In this document: piece by piece, positions 2,732-60,348 of the stretch
Numbering within the stretch: the stretch's first letter is position 1
Layout of the letters: each line of letters opens with the position of its first letter
Origin: Candidatus Micrarchaeota archaeon
GTDB lineage: Archaea > Micrarchaeota > Micrarchaeia > Norongarragalinales > Norongarragalinaceae
Assembly: GCA_037444485.1 (NCBI GenBank)
Contig: JBBIMI010000003.1
Span: 1,461 to 65,460 of the forward strand
DNA length: 64,000 nt
Direction: 5' to 3'
Made by a program: the position numbers and the translations under genes
Notes under the pieces: model-generated
Database searches by the model: none
What the model was told of the DNA's origin: nothing
The model's input: only the letters and a program-made list of their open reading frames with translations

Positions 2732-3154
2732 AAAACCGGAAACAAAAATTCTTTTAACGAAAAACGGTTTTTTTAGCGCTCGCGCTCGCTCGCAGCCCGC
2801 GCGGGACTCGCATCCGCGCGTTGCGCGACCACGAGCGCGTGGTCGCTCATCACCGCGACTTCAAGCAACTCAATCCCGTGCCGTTCAAACTCTTGAGGCT
2901 TGCTTCGCAAGCCTTTAAAAATTCTTCCAGCTTCAACACCTCAAAAACAGTATTTCGCGCACTACTGCAAATGCGCCGTCCGCGCGTTCTGTCCCGGACA
3001 ATGCTCGCTCACGCTAGACATGACTTACGCCTCCGGCGGCGCAACATCCGCGCCGCTAAGAAGGCATTATAATCGCAAAGAATTTAGGGCTAATTCATCC
3101 CACGACTGAACTCGTGGGATTTCTCAGCCAAACGCATTAAAAAAAGGTGATCAA

Positions 3155-10146: not shown

Positions 10147-10330
10147 GCCCCTGTAGCTTAGTGGTTAAAGCGCCTGTCTTGTACGAAGCTTTTCTTTCAA
10201 AAAAGAAGTTGAAAAAAGAAGAAAAGAAAAAAAGTTTTGAAAAAAGAAAACAAAAAAGAGAAAAGAAAAAAAAGAAGAAAAAGCGTTTCAGGAAAACAGG
10301 AGAACGAGAGTTCAAATCTCTCCAGGGGCT
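10147..10330 (+). tRNA. tRNA-Thr(UGU) with 111-nt canonical-position intron (10184..10294)
   Basis: Manual fold: acceptor GCCCCTG/CAGGGGC, D-arm GCTT-AGTGGTTA-AAGC, anticodon stem CCTGT/ACAGG, loop CTTGTA|intron|A, T-arm GAGAG-TTCAAAT-CTCTC, discriminator T; intron is purine-rich low complexity. Confidence 0.75.
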
Positions 10331-34920: not shown

Positions 34921-36237
34921 TCAAGCTGCTAGAACGTTGTCCACAAGCCATTCCGCGTTAAAGTCACGTAAGTCGGAATACTCTTGGCCAACACCAACGA
35001 AGAGCACTGGAAGTTTTGATTCGAAGGCGATGCTGAAAACCCCGCCGCCTTTCGCGTCGCAATCGAGTTTCGTGAGCACTATCGCGTCCACACCGACTTT
35101 CTCTTTGAAAGTCTTGACTTGTTCGACGAGCGCGTGTCCTGCGAGCGCTTCACCCACGAAAACCCGCAAGTCAGGCTTAATAACCCGATTCATTTTCTCC
35201 ATTTCCTTCACGAGGTTAAAATTCGTTTCCTGCCGTCCGGCAGTGTCAACGAGAACGACGTTCACGCCGTTCGCGCGCGCATGCGCTACTGCATCGAAAG
35301 CGACGGCAGTCGGGTCAGCGCCGTAAGCGTGCTTGACGACTTTCACGCCCAGCTTTTCACCGTGGTGTACTGCTTGCTCGATTGCCGCAGCGCGAAAACT
35401 ATCGCTCGCTGAAATCACGCTTGAAAAACCTTTTTCGCGCAAAAAAGCAACGATTTTCGCGATCGTTGTCGTCTTGCCTGAACCATTCGGTCCTAGAAAT
35501 AAAATTACGTAGGGCTCTCGCGAAACGCGTTTTCGCTTTATTTCTTCAACTAAATCTATTTTTTTTCGCGGAAACAAGTCCAGCAATGCGTTGCGCACTT
35601 CAGTTCGCACTTCGCTTGCAAGCGCGTTTTTCGCGATTCTTTTGCCAACGAGCCGTTTTTGTAAATCGCCGAGCAAGAATTGCGTTGCTTCGAATGAGAC
35701 GTCGCTTTCAAGCAGCGCTACTTCTAGGTCTTTGAGGAATGGTTGCACGTCGTTTTTTGAAATGTTGACTTCACTTGAAACCAGTGATTTGACGCGTGAA
35801 AGCAAGCTGAGTTTGGGTTTGAGTTCTTTTTTTTCTTCCCTAACTTCAAAATAATGTTTTTCTTTCTCTTTTTCGCGTTCCCCTCCACCCTCAAATTTTT
35901 TTCCTGCTTCCGCTTCAACGCGTTCAGCCTCCACGCGTTCGCCTGCCACGCATTCGCCTGCCACGCGTTCAGCTTCAGCGGCAACGGCTCGCGTTTCCAC
36001 CGTCTTGTCGCGCGCTGGTTCGCGCGCTACTACTTCGTGCGCGGCTTCGCGTGCTGCTTCGCGGCGCGCTTCTTCAAGAATTTCTTCTTCAACGCTTTTT
36101 CGCGTTTCCGCACCGTGTTTTGCTTCAAGTGGAGCGGCGGGAGTGGCTGGCGCTGCCTGCGTCGCTTCTTGTTTCTTGGCGACTATTCCGTCAATAAAAT
36201 TTTTCAACTTGTTTTTCAAAAGACCAAACATTTCCAC
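34921..36237 (-). CDS. ftsY: signal recognition particle receptor FtsY
   Basis: Acidic repeat-containing N-terminal A domain (ERVEAERVEAEA, EKEKEKH), NG domain with LGPNGSGKTTTIAK, VLVDTAGRQ, TKLD motifs; ends after G domain (no M domain). Confidence 0.9.
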   Translation of the reverse strand: MEMFGLLKNKLKNFIDGIVAKKQEATQAAPATPAAPLEAKHGAETRKSVEEEILEEARREAAREAAHEVVAREPARDKTVETRAVAAEAERVAGECVAGERVEAERVEAEAGKKFEGGGEREKEKEKHYFEVREEKKELKPKLSLLSRVKSLVSSEVNISKNDVQPFLKDLEVALLESDVSFEATQFLLGDLQKRLVGKRIAKNALASEVRTEVRNALLDLFPRKKIDLVEEIKRKRVSREPYVILFLGPNGSGKTTTIAKIVAFLREKGFSSVISASDSFRAAAIEQAVHHGEKLGVKVVKHAYGADPTAVAFDAVAHARANGVNVVLVDTAGRQETNFNLVKEMEKMNRVIKPDLRVFVGEALAGHALVEQVKTFKEKVGVDAIVLTKLDCDAKGGGVFSIAFESKLPVLFVGVGQEYSDLRDFNAEWLVDNVLAA

Positions 36238-40431: not shown

Positions 40432-40545
40432 TGGGCCTGCGGGGATTTGAACCCCGGCCTTCCAGTTCGCCCAGCAGCGCGAGCCGCAAGGCGGCTCGTG
40501 CTTCGTATAAGACTGGCACTCTAGACCAGGCTGAGTTACAGGCCC
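40432..40545 (-). tRNA. tRNA-Ile(UAU) with 38-nt canonical-position intron (40468..40505)
   Basis: Manual fold on minus strand: acceptor GGGCCTG/CAGGCCC, D-arm ACTC-AGCCTGGTCTA-GAGT, anticodon stem CCAGT/ACTGG, loop CTTATA|intron|A (anticodon TAT), T-arm CGGGG-TTCAAAT-CCCCG, discriminator A; intron begins CGAAGC like the tRNA-Thr intron and contains hairpin GAGCCGCcttGCGGCTC. Confidence 0.7.
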
Positions 40546-46912: not shown

Positions 46913-48022
46913 TTAAACTAATTTAATCAACCGCGTTCTCCCGCGGTCGCCCTTGCTGCTGTCTTTCTCTTCAGTAACAACTAACCGCTTTAACTCCAAG
47001 AGTTTCAAGCACTCGCGGAGAGTCCGTTCGCTCGCAACCCCTTCAAGCAACGAGTACAACTCGCCGCTCTCCAACGGCTTTCCAGCCTCGCGCAACACGC
47101 TTAATACGCTTTCCTCTAAACGCGTCAAGCCCACCAACCGCTTTTCTTTCGACGCATTCAACACTTCCTGCTCGAGAACAGCTTTCCTCGCGTCTGCAAG
47201 CTCAACGACGCACGCGCCCCGCTGTTCAGCATTGCGGCCAGCGTCGTAAAGCGCTTGCAACGCTACTCTCGCGTCCCCGCCTGCCTTCGCGCCGCACGCT
47301 GCACATAAAGCAAGCGCTTCCTTAGACAAAGCGTTTTCGAAAAACGCGGTTGCAGCGCGTTCTAGTAGAATTTGTTTGAGTTGAAGAGGTGAGTACTGCT
47401 TGAACTCGAGCGTCGCCGGTTGAAGCGAGCTTCTCGCGCGCGCGTCGAGTTTTGAAAGCAATTGCGCGTCGTTTGAAACCAGTATTTGCGTGAAGCTCGC
47501 GCCTGAAAGTTCTTTCGCGCGAGCTAAGTCGTACAACACGCGGTCGTTTCCAACGTGCAGCAAGCGGTCGACCTCATCTAGAACCACGACAGCGTTTCTC
47601 CTTGAAATCCGTACAGCTGCAGTAAAACGCTCGAACACTTCGTCTGCAGCTAGCCCGCGGCGCGGAAGCGGTTCTTCAGCAAGAAAAGCGAGTTGCGAGA
47701 AAACCGCGTGGCGGGTCGAATGCTGCCAACAGTTAACGTAGAAACACCACGCTTTGTCGCTGTAGTCACTTAAATCGCGTAGCGCGCGGCGAGTGCTCGC
47801 AGTTTTTCCGCTTCCGGGCGGTCCAAACACGAAGAGGTTGCGTCCTTTCGCGCCAACGCTTTCAGTAATCGGGCGCAGCGCGAGCGCGATTTGAGTTAAC
47901 TCGTTTTCGCGGCCTGGAAGCGTTTCAGGAATAAATTCGGGTTTGAGTGCGTCCTCGTTCGCGAAAACGCCTACGCGTTTTTCAGGCAGCGTAGAAAAAA
48001 CGTTTGGCGTGACGTTCGACAT
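46913..48022 (-). CDS. orc1: Orc1/Cdc6 replication initiator
   Basis: 369 aa; Walker A FGPPGSGKTAS, Walker B VVVLDEVD, sensor motifs, C-terminal winged helix. Confidence 0.85.
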   Translation of the reverse strand: MSNVTPNVFSTLPEKRVGVFANEDALKPEFIPETLPGRENELTQIALALRPITESVGAKGRNLFVFGPPGSGKTASTRRALRDLSDYSDKAWCFYVNCWQHSTRHAVFSQLAFLAEEPLPRRGLAADEVFERFTAAVRISRRNAVVVLDEVDRLLHVGNDRVLYDLARAKELSGASFTQILVSNDAQLLSKLDARARSSLQPATLEFKQYSPLQLKQILLERAATAFFENALSKEALALCAACGAKAGGDARVALQALYDAGRNAEQRGACVVELADARKAVLEQEVLNASKEKRLVGLTRLEESVLSVLREAGKPLESGELYSLLEGVASERTLRECLKLLELKRLVVTEEKDSSKGDRGRTRLIKLV

Positions 48023-48119
48023 GAAAATAGTTTAAAGTATTAAGAATTAAAATAAATTGCTTGAAGGTTAAGGTTAAAGGTTGAAACCCAAAAAATATTT
48101 TTAATTATTTATAAATTAT

Positions 48120-48317
48120 TTAAATAACTTATGCTTAAAGGCGCTGGATTCCGGCATGTTGCCGGGCTTGGCGGCTGGCGCCGCCATCAGCGCGCGTAAC
48201 GCGCGCGAAACGCTGCACCTACAAAAAACCGGCAAACAAGTAAAGCGAAACAATTTGATTCATCCGTAGTTGCGTTGCCTGAACTCGCGGAATTCTCAAC
48301 CAAACACGTTAAAATTA
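48120..48317. repeat. copy A of ~198-bp GC-palindrome-rich intergenic element (94% identical to 53892..54092)
   Basis: Direct comparison of the two loci: identical 117-nt core ggcggctggcgccgccatcagcgcgcgtaacgcgcgcgaaacgctgcacctacaaaaaaccggcaaacaagtaaagcgaaacaatttgattcatccgtagtt; contains hairpins GGCGGC-tggc-GCCGCC and CAGCGCGCG-taa-CGCGCGCG. Confidence 0.85.
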
Positions 48318-49013
48318 TTTAAGTTTACTTTCTTGTTCTGGCCGCGCGTACTCTTCCTCGAAAACCACTTTCTTTAACTCTGGCACGAACTCTAAAGCGA
48401 ACGCGATTGCGCGAAGCTTGCGCGCGACGAAATCAGCGTTTTTCACTGTTTTCGCATCCACGGTCACGCGCGCCACTCCCTCCTTGAAAGAAACATTTTC
48501 AGCCTTCACGCCGAACGCGCCGAGCGCGTCTTCAAACAACGCTGCGAGCTTCTCTTCCGGCTTCTTGAATACTTCCATTACAGTGAAATCGTAATGCAAG
48601 TCTATTCCCGCGAGCTCGTGGTTGAAGTCAACGCGCACGCGACCGCCGCTAACGCTTTGAACGCGCGCCAGCACGCCGTCGATGTCGAGCGTCATTCCAG
48701 CAACCGGAGTCACTCCCTGTTCTATAAACTTTTGCAACGGAATCAAACGCACGAGATTAGGATTACGTTCGCCGAACCCTGCATCGCGCGGCACGTCCAC
48801 GCTCTTCCTCACGCCTTTTTCCGCGCCCACCACCGCAGCGTCGAGTCCCTTCACTAACTGGTTTTTGCCTGCGACTACGAGAACTGGTTTGCCGCCGCGA
48901 GTAGAGTCGAATTCTCTTCCATCACTCGTCTTTCCAGAGTAATCGAGTTTTACGAAGTCTCCCGTGTTTACTATTGTTGGTGTTGTTGAAGCGATTTTCA
49001 TCACCTTTTTCAC
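48315..49013 (-). CDS. FKBP-type peptidyl-prolyl cis-trans isomerase (long archaeal FKBP with IF/chaperone insert)
   Basis: GDFVKLDYSGKTSDGREFDST...PVLVVAGKNQLVKGLDAAVVGAEKGVRKSVDVP FKBP signature; 232 aa. Confidence 0.85.
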   Translation of the reverse strand: MKKVMKIASTTPTIVNTGDFVKLDYSGKTSDGREFDSTRGGKPVLVVAGKNQLVKGLDAAVVGAEKGVRKSVDVPRDAGFGERNPNLVRLIPLQKFIEQGVTPVAGMTLDIDGVLARVQSVSGGRVRVDFNHELAGIDLHYDFTVMEVFKKPEEKLAALFEDALGAFGVKAENVSFKEGVARVTVDAKTVKNADFVARKLRAIAFALEFVPELKKVVFEEEYARPEQESKLK

Positions 49014-53891: not shown

Positions 53892-54092
53892 TTAAATAAC
53901 TTACGCTTAAAGGCGGAAATTCCGGCACGCTGCCAGGCTTGGCGGCTGGCGCCGCCATCAGCGCGCGTAACGCGCGCGAAACGCTGCACCTACAAAAAAC
54001 CGGCAAACAAGTAAAGCGAAACAATTTGATTCATCCGTAGTTTATGCGTTGCCTGAACTCGCGAATTTCTCAGCCAAACACGTTAAAATAGT
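53892..54092. repeat. copy B of ~198-bp GC-palindrome-rich intergenic element
   Basis: See copy A; differences confined to 5' 40 nt (one 1-nt indel) and 3' 45 nt. Confidence 0.85.
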
Positions 54093-54117
54093 TAAAATAA
54101 ATTATTTCACAATTATT

Positions 54118-55029
54118 TCACGAGAAAACCAAGCTCGCGAAGGCGAGCAACCCCAAGCCAAGCGCATATAGAGAGTAATTCCGCACGCGTTTGAAGACCC
54201 GCGCGTCCTTCCCTAAAATCATTATTTTAGTAACCACCAACCAAAAAACGTCCGCCAGAATAACGAGAACGACGTAAGGAATGAAGAAAACCACTAACAA
54301 TGGCAGGAAACTCACCGCAACCGCAAAGTAAATCAACGTGCTCGCGAGAATTACAGTCTTACGCCTTCCTAAAAGCATGGGGAGCGTCAGCATTCCAGCC
54401 TTGCGGTCGCCCTTCACGTCCCGCAACGTTATCAATAATTCGCGTCCCAAGCCTGAAGCGAAAGCCATCAACGCGAACGCGAGCACGAAAAAATTCAAGT
54501 TAGAGAGCGAGTCTACAAGCGCAGCGTTGCCGTAAACGAATGCGATGCTCATGCTGCTTGCAATGAATGCGTTGCCTAAGAGCGGAATGCGTTTGAGGTG
54601 CGAGTCGTAGAAAATCGAGAGTACTGCGAATGCGAGACCGATTGCAAACGCAGTGTTGTTTACGAGAGTCAAGCTAGCCAAGCCAAGAACGTAGAAAAAC
54701 ATTGCAGAATAAAGCGCGTGCACGCGCTTTATTTTTCCGGAAACCAGTGGGCGGTCGAAACGCTTGTTGGCCTTATCGCTTTGAAAACCAAGGTAATCGT
54801 TAAGCGCAAAAGACGCGAGTACTATGAAGAAAGGCGCGATTGCTGGAATCAAGAATGCAGGCATAAAGCTTTTTGCAGCTATCGCTTCAGCCATTACGAC
54901 CGCAAAAGCTGTTAAAAAAGCGTGTTCGGCGCGAGTCAAACGCCACCAGTTTTTCAAAACGCTCACAAAAACCATGCTCGCAAGTTTTCTCACAAGTTTT
55001 TCCCGTAAACAAGTATCGTCTTGTCCCAC
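54118..55029 (-). CDS. UbiA-family prenyltransferase (digeranylgeranylglyceryl phosphate synthase-like)
   Basis: LNDYLGFQSD (NDxxDxxxD) motif, polytopic 303 aa. Confidence 0.8.
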   Translation of the reverse strand: MGQDDTCLREKLVRKLASMVFVSVLKNWWRLTRAEHAFLTAFAVVMAEAIAAKSFMPAFLIPAIAPFFIVLASFALNDYLGFQSDKANKRFDRPLVSGKIKRVHALYSAMFFYVLGLASLTLVNNTAFAIGLAFAVLSIFYDSHLKRIPLLGNAFIASSMSIAFVYGNAALVDSLSNLNFFVLAFALMAFASGLGRELLITLRDVKGDRKAGMLTLPMLLGRRKTVILASTLIYFAVAVSFLPLLVVFFIPYVVLVILADVFWLVVTKIMILGKDARVFKRVRNYSLYALGLGLLAFASLVFS

Positions 55030-55503: not shown

Positions 55504-55613
55504 AGCCCCGTCGTATAGTGGTCAAACAGCTTTCCAGCAAAAAAAAGAGAAAGCTGGACTTCGTATGCGGGCCTCTGGAGCCTGAGACGGCGGTTCGAAT
55601 CCGCCCGGGGCTA
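55504..55613 (+). tRNA. tRNA-Gln(CUG) with non-canonical 37-nt intron in D-loop (approx 55526..55562)
   Basis: Manual fold: acceptor AGCCCCG/CGGGGCT (A1-U72 as in archaeal tRNA-Gln), discriminator A, D-stem GTAT/GTAT with terminal G-U pairs (as in archaeal tRNA-Gln GUGU/GCAU), D-loop AGTGGTCAA then inserted ACAGCTTTCCAGCaaaaaaaagagaaaGCTGGACTTC hairpin, anticodon arm CGGGC-CTCTGGA-GCCTG, T-arm GGCGG-TTCGAAT-CCGCC. Confidence 0.65.
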
Positions 55614-55661: not shown

Positions 55662-56432
55662 ATGGGCGTTATCCACGTCAAGAAAAAGAGTTTCCGCTTA
55701 AACAAGTACTGGGTTTTGCTTGTAATCGTAGTCATAGTGCAGGCAATCGCGGTAACAGACTTCGTACTACTCGAAAAAAGACCGTTTCCAGACGCTTTGT
55801 TTGAAAGCATGTGCACCGCGTTGTACGTCGACTGCGCGAGCGGCGCGCTGGTCACGAAAGTAGTGCACGTGTTGCTCGGGTTGACGACGATGGCCGTGCT
55901 TGCCGTAGTGATTACTGAAGGAGTTGATTACTTGATTAAAAACACTTTAGAGGGGAGGGGAATGAAAAAACAAATCAATGCGATGCGCAACCACATCATC
56001 GTATGCGGTTACGGAGAACTAGGCAAGACAGTTTGTCAGACTCTCGCCAACGAAAAAGAAGACTTCGTCGTTATAGACATTGACGCGAAGACAGCAAAAA
56101 AAGTTGCTGACGCTGGCTTTCCAGTAGTTGAAGGCGACGCTTTGGAAGCAAAAACGCTTCAGAAAGCCGGAATCGCGCGCGCCAGGCGCGTTGTAAGCGC
56201 CTTGAACTCTGATTCCTCCAACGTCTTCCTCACGCTCACTGTGAAAGAATTAAACCCGAGGGCAGCAGTCGCAACTCGCGCTTACAGCGAGGACGCCGTT
56301 GGCAAGCTCCACCGCGCAGGCGCCGACGTGATAGTAATGCCAGAGATAATCGGCGGTTTAGAGCTCGCGAAAGAAATACTGGATTTAGAGGACAGCTACG
56401 CAAGCAAACTCGTTTCAAGCAAAAAGAAATAA
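55662..56432 (+). CDS. TrkA-N (RCK, NAD-binding) domain membrane protein, putative K+ transport/channel component
   Basis: Two N-terminal TM helices then Rossmann IIVCGYGELGKTV...VVIDID; ORF-track start trimmed to ATG 55662 to avoid tRNA-Gln overlap. Confidence 0.65.
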   Translation: MGVIHVKKKSFRLNKYWVLLVIVVIVQAIAVTDFVLLEKRPFPDALFESMCTALYVDCASGALVTKVVHVLLGLTTMAVLAVVITEGVDYLIKNTLEGRGMKKQINAMRNHIIVCGYGELGKTVCQTLANEKEDFVVIDIDAKTAKKVADAGFPVVEGDALEAKTLQKAGIARARRVVSALNSDSSNVFLTLTVKELNPRAAVATRAYSEDAVGKLHRAGADVIVMPEIIGGLELAKEILDLEDSYASKLVSSKKK

Positions 56433-58614: not shown

Positions 58615-60348
58615 TCAAGAGTGTTTAGCCGATAGTGAAGAGTCGATTGACTTCATCAAGTCGCTTACTTTCTTTTCGAATCCTTCGTCGCGAGTGCGCT
58701 TCAACTGCGCGATTTCCTGCCGTTCCTTGATTCCCAAAATCTTTTCGAAAGGTATTTCCATCGCCAACGCCGCAACCGCCTTTTCGTAGTAATGCATGAT
58801 TACCTTCAACAGCCAGTATTGTTTCTGCGGCGGCGAGTAAGCGTCGATTTCCTCGAAAGAGTGTTGCTGCAGGAAGTCTTCACGAATCATCTTCGTCGCT
58901 TCAAGAACAAGCCTCTCGCGTTCCGGCAGCGCGTCCGGACCGACGAGCTGCACTATAGCCTGCAATTCAGCTTCTTTTTGCAGCAACTCCATTGCTTTCG
59001 CGCGCAGAGGCATGAAGTCGGGCGCCACGTGCTTCGCGTAGTAATCCGAGAGTTCGTCGAGGTAAAGCGAGTACGACTTCAACCAATTGATTGCGGGATA
59101 GTGCCGGCGTCTTGCGAGGCTGGAATCAAGCGCCCAGAAGGCTTTCGTGATGCGAAGAGTTCCTTGTGAGACGGGTTCGCTGATGTCGCCGCCAGGCGGA
59201 GAAACAGCGCCGATTATCGAAACGCTTCCCACTCGCGCTGGAGAACCGAGGCAGTCGACGCGTCCGCTGCGTTCGTAGAACTCGGCGAGCTTACGCGACA
59301 AGTAAGCTGGGTAGCCTTCTTCTCCAGGCATTTCTTCCATGCGCCCGCTGATTTCACGCATTGCTTCTGCCCAGCGCGAAGTCGAGTCGGCCATGAGCGC
59401 GACGTCGAAACCCATGTCGCGATAATACTCGGCAATCGTAACGCCGGTGTAAATGCTTGCTTCGCGAGCTGCGACAGGCATGTTAGACGTGTTCGCTATG
59501 AGCACAGTTCGGTTCATCAACGGTTTTTTGGTTTTCGGGTCTAAGAGTTCGGGAAATTGAGTCAACACTTCAGTCATTTCATTCCCGCGTTCGCCGCAGC
59601 CGATGTAAACAATTATGTCCGCATCCGCGTACTTCGCCAAATCCTGCTGCGTCACGGTTTTTCCAGTTCCGAAGCCGCCTGGAATTGCTGCAGTTCCTCC
59701 TTTCGCGATTGGAAAAAACGTGTCGAGAATTCTTTTTCCGGAAACCAGTGGGACTTCGAAACGCTTTTTTTCTTTGTATGGCCGCGAGACGCGGACAGGC
59801 CATTTTTGCATTAAGGAAATTTTCTTGCCGCCGACTTTCGCTATCTCCTCTTCGACCGTGAAGGAACCTTCGCTTATGCTTTCGAGAGTTCCTTCAATTT
59901 TGGGCGGGACGAGAATCCTATGCTCCAAGTCGCCTTCCTTGACTGTTCCTAGAACGTCGCCTGGCGAGAGTTTAGCACCTTTCTTTGCAGTCGGCTTGAA
60001 AGCCCATTTTTTCTTTCTGTCGAGCGATGGGACGTAGACTCCTCGGGTGATGAAGTCGCCAGTGTCTTTACGAATCGCTTCGAGCGGGCGCTGGATTCCG
60101 TCGAAGACAGTAGTCAACAACCCAGGCCCTAGTTCGACTTGCAAGGGCGCGCCTGTCGCTTCAATGGGGTCGCCGGGTTTCAAACCGCTCGTGTCTTCGT
60201 AAACTTGAATGCTGGCTTCGTCGCCGTGCAAAGCAATGATTTCGCCCAAAAGCTTTTCCTTCCCGACTTTTACGACTTCATTGATAGTAGTTCCCTTCAT
60301 TCCTTTTCCTACGATGAGCGGTCCAGAGATTCTAGCTAATTCACCCAT
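58615..60348 (-). CDS. atpA: V-type ATP synthase catalytic subunit A
   Basis: 577 aa; Walker [11 protein letters not shown], ...[28 protein letters not shown]... Confidence 0.95.

Follow-up and report, generated by a model that had tools for sequence, protein, structure and literature searches.

What is a GC-palindrome-rich, apparently non-coding element of about 200 bp, present in two almost identical copies, doing between the genes of a Micrarchaeota genome? The question is raised by a 64,000-nucleotide stretch of the Candidatus Micrarchaeota archaeon assembly GCA_037444485.1 (contig JBBIMI010000003.1, positions 1,461 to 65,460 of the forward strand; hereafter the window, numbered from its first letter). 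The original prediction for this locus, made from the letters alone, offered either a pair of paralogous structured small RNA genes or a DNA element that binds protein or resembles MITEs, miniature transposable elements with inverted repeats. DPANN archaea have among the smallest cellular genomes, and their non-coding DNA is little known. Our analysis indicates that the two sequences are, with high probability, copies of a mobile repeat. We see an even chance that they are members of a small non-coding and non-autonomous mobile element family of the IS200/IS605 type in this Micrarchaeota (DPANN) genome, similar to the palindrome-associated transposable elements (PATEs). For an IS200/IS605-type transposition mechanism as such, the comparison of ends and junctions suggests an even chance at best. 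We are fairly confident that the element was recently inserted between housekeeping genes and constitutes an ordinary genomic passenger, and no new RNA gene.

The two copies lie where they had been predicted and are near-identical from end to end. They share one orientation and form direct repeats 5.8 kb apart, each in a gap between co-directional minus-strand genes. The element and its internal landmarks are as follows.

48120 to 48308, minus strand: copy A of the element, 189 bp, with its left end CGTGTTTGGTTGAG at 48308 and its right end GCATAAGTTATTTAA at 48120
53892 to 54082, minus strand: copy B of the element, 191 bp, oriented as copy A
48151 to 48215, no strand: GC-rich hairpin cluster of copy A, 72% GC; the same cluster lies at 53922 to 53986 in copy B
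48223 to 48228, minus strand: run of six T (T6; A6 on the plus strand), preceded by a long imperfect hairpin (GGCAA...TTGCC); the equivalent in copy B lies at 53994 to 53999, downstream of UbiA

Global alignment of 48120-48317 with 53892-54092 yields 93.9% identity over aligned bases. The 12 mismatches agree with the original prediction, which had counted one indel where we find two (1 nt and 3 nt; gap columns counted, five), and the longest identical run spans 106 nt (48165-48270) instead of 117 nt. A 46-nt word from this core occurs exactly twice in the window, with zero occurrences expected from shuffles, and a profile search with nhmmer returns both copies with E-values of about 1e-74. At 189-191 bp, the element is non-coding and too short for a transposase. 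The claim that it lacks a conserved open reading frame (ORF) needs rewording: the shared core is in fact traversed by short ORFs on either strand (45 and 55 aa on minus, 37 and 33 aa on plus; all ORFs of the element measure 22-55 aa), and these are without homologues, the 55-aa core-spanning ORF matching nothing in a database search among 5.8 billion proteins. The GC hairpins and the A-rich stretch accompanying them are present as described. In copy A, the hairpins are located at 48151-48165, 48170-48185 and 48188-48215 (CCGGCA-TGT-TGCCGG; GGCGGC-TGGC-GCCGCC; CAGCGCGCG-TAA-CGCGCGCG..CGCTG), and the hairpin segment has a GC content of 72% compared to 49% for the whole window. The oligo-T run, which had been taken for the minus-strand end of the element, sits in its middle. 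Copy A abuts the stop codon (48315-48317) of a gene for an FKBP-type isomerase, and the Orc1/Cdc6 gene (46913-48022, minus strand) follows it at a distance of about 100 bp; 25 nt separate copy B from the stop codon of the UbiA prenyltransferase gene (54118-54120). Named relatives of the Cdc6 protein bear, for the most part, the label Candidatus Micrarchaeota.

In close relatives, the AT-rich intergenic spacers into which the two copies have inserted are short and uninterrupted. At site B, the closest relative found (L008, GCA_037446875.1; UbiA 95% identical) has a spacer of 89 nt compared to 257 nt in the window, and its empty allele reads, without interruption, ...AATTAATTTTAA|TGGGCGTAAAAAAT..., while the filled site of the window reads ...ATTTTAA|CGTGTTTGGCTGAGAAAT...GCGTAAGTTATTTAA|TGGGCGTAAAAAAT... 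(the right end is also given as TTATTTAA|TGGGCGTAAAAAAT). The junction is base-precise: on the minus strand, the insertion directly follows TTTAA on its 3' side. At site A, L004 (84% identical Cdc6) has no insertion, with 59 nt from the FKBP stop to the Cdc6 start compared to 292 nt in the window. The element is also absent from site A in P0006, a 55% relative with a spacer of 82 nt, and in L002, a 90% relative whose spacer carries an unrelated purine-rich simple repeat; more generally, it was not found upstream of cdc6 in L002-L007 (84-90% identical Cdc6). The gene order between sites A and B is ancestral, as in relatives lacking the element, and we therefore read the two copies as separate insertions into a conserved gene string and not as the product of a segmental duplication. 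Two Logan contigs from the same species, but another sample, stop inside the element, one entering from each side, as expected of an assembler confronted with a multi-copy repeat. It is at these very points that the repeat breaks metagenome assemblies.

Several further observations concern the same spacers. The L002 repeat is a tandem, purine-rich array (GAGAAAAAGAGAGGGGAAAAACGAG...) at 2620-2745 that takes the place of the element in the FKBP-Cdc6 spacer, a hot spot that has received different insertions in different lineages. In the window, three tandem AAGGTTA-like units (GAAGGTTAAGGTTAAAGGTTGAAA) at 48064-48087 separate copy A from the conserved Cdc6 promoter region, and these are missing from the empty spacer of L004. 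Beside copy B, at 54081-54121, GTTAAAATA and AATTATTTCAC are each present twice as small tandem duplications and each once in the empty allele of L008; they may have arisen by slippage or represent footprints of an earlier insertion and excision. In JGI metagenome 3300010938, the L010 contig ends (10862) 1 nt past the UbiA stop, and another contig of the same organism (L002, position 1) starts at Spt5. Both breaks fall where the repeat would sit, and no element sequence was recovered there.

A profile built from copies A and B was run with nhmmer over the window and all fetched relative loci. This recovered a diverged member in the closest relative, L008e, at positions 1-155 of L008 and downstream of TrkA; this member is 69% identical over the 86 nt next to one end (E 4e-7). 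Because the TrkA-AtpD spacer of the window comprises 94 nt only, the window provides the empty allele for L008e. Family members at different loci in two close relatives are a signature of mobility. The same search added another copy within the window, which had been thought to hold two.

3073 to 3136, minus strand: W3, a partial third copy comprising the left-end module only (nhmmer E 1.6e-4; 39 of 51 positions identical to the left end of copy B)

An apparent continuation of W3 into a degenerate right end at 3018-3045 was rejected, as 547 of 979 genomic controls score equally, and a weak nhmmer match at 35129-35193 lies within the FtsY gene and was attributed to chance. Scans for three exact core or flank words across genome, metagenome and viral contig collections gave zero matches, as did a degenerate left-end pattern in the viral contig collection; the corresponding right-end pattern matched two viral contigs, both times in ordinary coding sequence and hence by chance. 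Next to W3, about 300 bp of GC-rich sequence without a credible ORF (2770-3060) follow a ThiS/SAMP-like gene ending in GG (2522-2731). Broken minus-strand reading frames suggest that this stretch is a decayed gene. Rfam returned nothing credible for the W3 region, the best match to the 2770-3060 stretch having an E-value of 0.025, far below the cut-off.

With four copies at hand, the ends of the element can be compared. The element has no terminal inverted repeats: the best match between the left end and the reverse-complemented right end covers 8-11 AT-rich nucleotides and is equalled by 25 of 300 shuffles for copy A and 38 of 300 for copy B. What the copies do share is a pentamer.

48309 to 48313, minus strand: TTTAA (TTAAA on the plus strand), proposed target of copy A, directly 5' of the left end and 2 nt from the FKBP-type stop codon
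54083 to 54087, minus strand: TTTAA, proposed target of copy B, directly 5' of the left end; a second TTTAA lies 9 nt further out (54092 to 54096) in a 9-bp tandem duplication
3137 to 3141, minus strand: TTTAA abutting the left end of W3, from the junction comparison
48120 to 48124, minus strand: terminal TTTAA of the element (right end); copy B has the same pentamer at 53892 to 53896, as has L008e at its right end

In all three junctions available (A, B and W3), TTTAA (as TTTTAA) precedes the left end. The empty allele of L008 has its insertion point marked by the same motif, which is single there and not duplicated as beside copy B. The right end of the element is itself TTTAA in three of three cases (A, B and L008e). 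Since the element ends in its target pentamer, insertion without target duplication and insertion with a 5-bp duplication give the same sequence.

Hairpins near the ends are best seen in the two diverged members. The left end of W3 carries the best-preserved hairpin, CCCACG-AGTTCAGT-CGTGGG (3099-3118), which is preceded by GAGAAAT, starts 18 nt inside the boundary and folds as single-stranded DNA (ssDNA) with -11 kcal/mol (z -4.6). At the right end of L008e, the hairpin CCTACG-GCTTTAGG-CGTAGG ends 8 nt before the boundary (ssDNA z -2.0). In direct orientation, the two are identical at 21 of 28 positions, including GAAAT 5' of each stem and an exchange of T-A to C-G within the stem; only 2 of 1000 shuffles were as good, and the inverted control gave nothing. 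On the minus strand, the distance from boundary to palindrome is accordingly longer at the 5' end (18 nt, W3) than at the 3' end (8 nt, L008e). All four copies reside on the same chromosomal strand, which carries 43 of the 58 genes and more G than C.

These features are consistent with a single-strand transposition pathway. A Y1 (HUH) TnpA transposase encoded elsewhere would recognise, on a single DNA strand (the minus strand of the window), the hairpins close to the two ends, cut this strand out as a circle and insert it 3' of TTTAA into ssDNA exposed at a replication fork. Several points weigh against this proposal. No tnpA, tnpB or other transposase or integrase is encoded in the 64-kb window, in which about 50 ORFs were annotated, all of them housekeeping (aminoacyl-tRNA synthetases, SMC, FtsZ, FtsY, the A-type ATPase operon, ribosomal proteins and others), and no full-length parent element was seen. 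The known copies amount to three in the window and one in a relative, and the exact-word scans of the collections came back empty. The end hairpins of copies A and B are weak (ssDNA z of about 0), and the left end of these copies shows no significant similarity to the right end. The IS200/IS605-like geometry consequently rests on W3 and L008e, each of which shows one end; the ends of A and B may be functional in an unrecognised form, or A and B may be ageing copies. Given that the element ends in TTTAA like its target, a 5-bp target duplication by another transposase fits equally well, and the proposal does not account for the 9 additional bp, with another TTTAA, that adjoin copy B at its left end. 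The empty allele of site A comes from a relative with 84% identity, lacks TTTAA at the corresponding place and is too diverged to show the target. Finally, the shared strand of all copies might be taken to reflect the lagging-strand template, an argument of little weight, since GC skew here largely tracks the coding strand: measured on the plus strand, it is +0.048 in plus-strand genes and -0.078 in minus-strand genes. The cumulative skew declines through most of the window, is briefly reversed at 40-46 kb and shows no sustained turn at orc1/cdc6 (48 kb).

The conservation of the core also bears on the nature of the element. Differences between copies A and B cluster at the ends (P of about 3e-4 for the 106-nt clean run). 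In the Logan allele of copy A, six differing alignment columns fall within a core stretch of about 25 nt, and the rest of the overlap of about 110 nt is identical. Such patchy replacement is what gene conversion between paralogous copies produces, and at least one further core variant should therefore exist in the population. Gene conversion between copies would also be the best explanation for an identical 106-nt core beside divergent ends; selection on the core is conceivable but not needed to explain the pattern.

A core that is perfectly conserved between copies A and B is also what one would look for in a family of paralogous structured small RNA genes, transcribed either from a TATA-like box (TTTAAATA) on the plus strand, at which the similarity between the copies begins, or within the upstream mRNA on the minus strand. 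GC-rich hairpins in an AT-rich spacer (72% GC compared to 49% for the window) fit this explanation, as do two substitutions between A and B that keep pairing on the minus strand only (G-to-A at 48164, giving U.G, and A-to-G in TCAACC/TCAGCC, giving C-G for U.G), and the ends of IS200/IS605 elements as well as PATEs are known to yield guide or overlapping RNAs (PMC10055086). We nevertheless consider RNA genes improbable. Searches of the window and of copy A found no Rfam family at gathering thresholds or at E<=10, the best permissive match being sucC with 17 bits (E 0.65, cut-off 50), and folding energies are no better than those of shuffles (z -0.49 on the plus strand, z -1.32 on the minus strand). 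When L008e is included, the covariation term of RNAalifold is unfavourable (+1.06), with two of 23 pairs doubly changed in an alignment of four sequences and hence of low power; the hairpins of L008e are replaced by different ones, without co-variation. Close relatives lack the element in the syntenic spacers, it occurs at other loci, and its orientation to genes is inconsistent, A and B being co-directional with the upstream gene and L008e and W3 antisense to their neighbour. In addition, the best-conserved 5' hairpin would fall upstream of the start site set by the plus-strand TATA box, and the T6 run interrupts a minus-strand transcript. Among known RNAs, C/D-box, H/ACA, 5S, signal recognition particle (SRP) and RNase P identities were dismissed for lack of boxes or conserved motifs by eye, in line with the original prediction, which had failed to match C/D, H/ACA, SRP and RNase P RNAs by eye, and with the negative Rfam result. 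The repeat is a trap for any screen that reports islands rich in GC and hairpins as new RNA genes.

Three further alternatives were considered. The most serious one accepts a mobile or duplicative repeat and assigns it another mechanism, namely a transposase that duplicates 5 bp of TTTAA, or copying between AT-rich spacers by microhomology or recombination. TTTAA stands at both ends of every complete copy and is readable as a target duplication, TnpA substrates would not be expected to have end hairpins as weak as those of A and B, and the small tandem duplications in the spacers beside copy B would also suit this account. An 11-bp direct repeat, AAATTATTTAA, flanks copy A (48113-48123 and 48312-48322), with AAATTATTT present once in the empty spacer of L004; as nothing comparable flanks copy B and every copy is accounted for by the TTTAA junction, we set this repeat aside as a target duplication in our principal interpretation. 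Target-duplicating transposases, however, normally need terminal inverted repeats, of which the element has none. Nor would such a model, which we regard as unlikely, predict the related direct hairpins at opposite ends, their asymmetric spacing (18 nt and 8 nt) or the location of all copies on one strand. A one-off local segmental duplication of intergenic DNA, without mobility or function, would account for just two full copies 5.8 kb apart in the same orientation, and it is this outcome that the original prediction had tied, among other conditions, to an absence of further copies or homologs anywhere, whereas further members do exist. It appears very improbable, given that the genes between the copies keep the ancestral order of relatives without the element, that both junctions fall at the same pentamer and that diverged copies are found at loci not linked to these and in a second genome (W3 and L008e). 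Copy A lies upstream of Orc1/Cdc6 and beside an AT-rich spacer with three AAGGTTA-like repeats, which brings to mind a replication origin or an Orc1/Cdc6-binding element. This we find barely credible: none of the relatives examined (84-90% identical Cdc6) has the element upstream of cdc6, on which ground we reject it, and the other copies adjoin UbiA, an unknown gene and TrkA, the copies form direct repeats without inverted boxes around an unwinding element, and the cumulative GC skew makes no sustained turn at this position.

A mobile repeat may still affect the genes next to it. Archaeal RNA polymerase terminates at oligo-T tracts. Copies A and B follow stop codons, with a hairpin and then T6 on the coding strand about 85-90 nt inside the element, and they thus probably serve, as judged from their sequence, as the current transcription stop (3' end) of the FKBP-type and UbiA genes. 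A scan for bacterial-type terminators flagged nothing in the element. Because L008e and W3 are antisense to their neighbouring genes, such an effect would be a by-product and not a role of the family as a whole. The element thereby combines a place next to a replication initiator gene and behind stop codons with a T-run that may now end transcription. Recent activity of a protein-less mobile repeat in this genome would mean that even streamlined genomes carry selfish DNA moving between housekeeping genes.

Other features of the window deserve mention. At 55507-55613 on the plus strand, a 31-bit match to a "tRNA without a D-arm" is a genuine tRNA-Gln(CUG), with the acceptor AGCCCCG/CGGGGCT, a perfect T-arm and a non-canonical intron of about 30 nt (CTTTCCAGCAAAAAAAAGAGAAAGCTGGA...) in the D-arm region. 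As the GTG-extended, 304-aa TrkA ORF of the Logan assembly overlaps this tRNA, TrkA more likely starts at the ATG at 55662. Two further tRNA genes, at 10147-10330 (plus strand) and 40432-40545 (minus strand), contain very long introns of 113 nt and 39 nt, respectively, the former being purine-rich and of low complexity. ARAGORN in bacterial mode missed all of them and detected no tRNA in the window. Lastly, 40 nt of UbiA (54729-54768) and of the A-ATPase A subunit gene (59730-59769) are 88% identical between otherwise unrelated genes; translated by hand, both encode RF(D/E)xPLVSGK on the minus strand, and a chance origin of the nucleotide similarity seems unlikely.

How does the element compare to known systems? 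Classical prokaryotic MITEs, such as the SM elements of Sulfolobus and the Correia elements of Neisseria, are defined by terminal inverted repeats matching those of insertion sequences with DDE transposases. Like these, the element is small, non-coding, intergenic, hairpin-forming, multi-copy (at least three copies here) and strain-polymorphic, it may carry terminators or promoters, and it breaks short-read assemblies. Without terminal inverted repeats it is no classical MITE, and the MITE-like label of the original prediction thus holds for a recent, polymorphic insertion belonging to a small repeat family, for which the PATE or IS200/IS605 type is the better fit. A second comparison concerns the omega RNA (reRNA) modules of TnpB found in some PATEs (PMC10055086), since the segment directly before the right end, about 110 nt long, GC-rich and with multiple hairpins, occupies the position of the scaffold. 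In contrast to omega RNA, the element is without Rfam similarity and without a promoter, the T6 run lies just upstream, and no TnpB is encoded in the 64-kb window. In TnpB systems, the transposon-ending motif differs from the target, which leaves the filled site uncleaved (PMC11043419); here, both motifs are TTTAA, and the filled site would therefore be unprotected from cleavage. It is decidedly improbable that this segment is a stand-alone, omega-RNA-like scaffold on a protein-less element, read out from the host gene upstream and serving, in trans, a TnpB encoded at another place in this very small genome, or, more broadly, that the element is a new mobile structured-RNA cassette.

The closest counterparts are found among IS200/IS605 elements, which, according to a 2026 survey, occur in more than 65% of Micrarchaeota genomes and form the commonest insertion sequence family there (PMC13343696). 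In Helicobacter pylori, the left end of IS608 always inserts 3' of TTAC, which is read by AAAG just 5' of the foot of the left hairpin (PMC5027513). Similarly, the left end of our element lies 3' of its target and an A-rich word, AAAT instead of AAAG, precedes the hairpin foot. The distances from end to hairpin are 19 nt and 10 nt in IS608, and 18 nt and 8 nt here. TTTAA itself is an experimentally supported insertion site and the TnpB transposon-associated motif (TAM) of IS605-type elements in Sulfolobus islandicus REY15A (PMC11043419; bioRxiv 10.1101/2023.03.06.531077), so that both share the same pentamer as target. These elements differ from ours in their transposon-ending motif, TTCAC, which is distinct from the target, while our element ends in TTTAA itself; moreover, IS605-type elements and IS608 encode TnpA and/or TnpB as well as omega RNA.

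The conserved ends now provide a search handle for IS200/IS605 elements of Micrarchaeota, with TTTAA|YGYGTTTGGYTGAGAAAT-hairpin on the left and hairpin-TTRTTTAA| on the right, and TnpB guide RNAs might be found likewise. The PATEs are protein-less IS200/IS605 derivatives of Haloquadratum walsbyi and other prokaryotes whose definition includes a 5' boundary further from the palindrome than the 3' boundary (PMC3119063). They differ from our element in that no tnpA/tnpB parent with matching ends was seen here and the palindromes of A and B are eroded, and in their numbers, with hundreds in Haloquadratum compared to few visible copies in a DPANN host with a tiny genome. The likeness is nonetheless extensive: both are short and non-coding, lack terminal inverted repeats, carry near-terminal palindromes that are alike in direct orientation (in our family as seen in W3 and L008e), use a short fixed target of 4-6 nt at the 5' end and place the 5' palindrome at a greater distance than the 3' palindrome. 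Strain-specific insertions with contiguous empty alleles, heterogeneous interiors between conserved ends and end-only fragments, such as W3, complete the resemblance. Of the descriptions considered, that of a PATE-like, non-autonomous mobile element family of the IS200/IS605 type has the best support.

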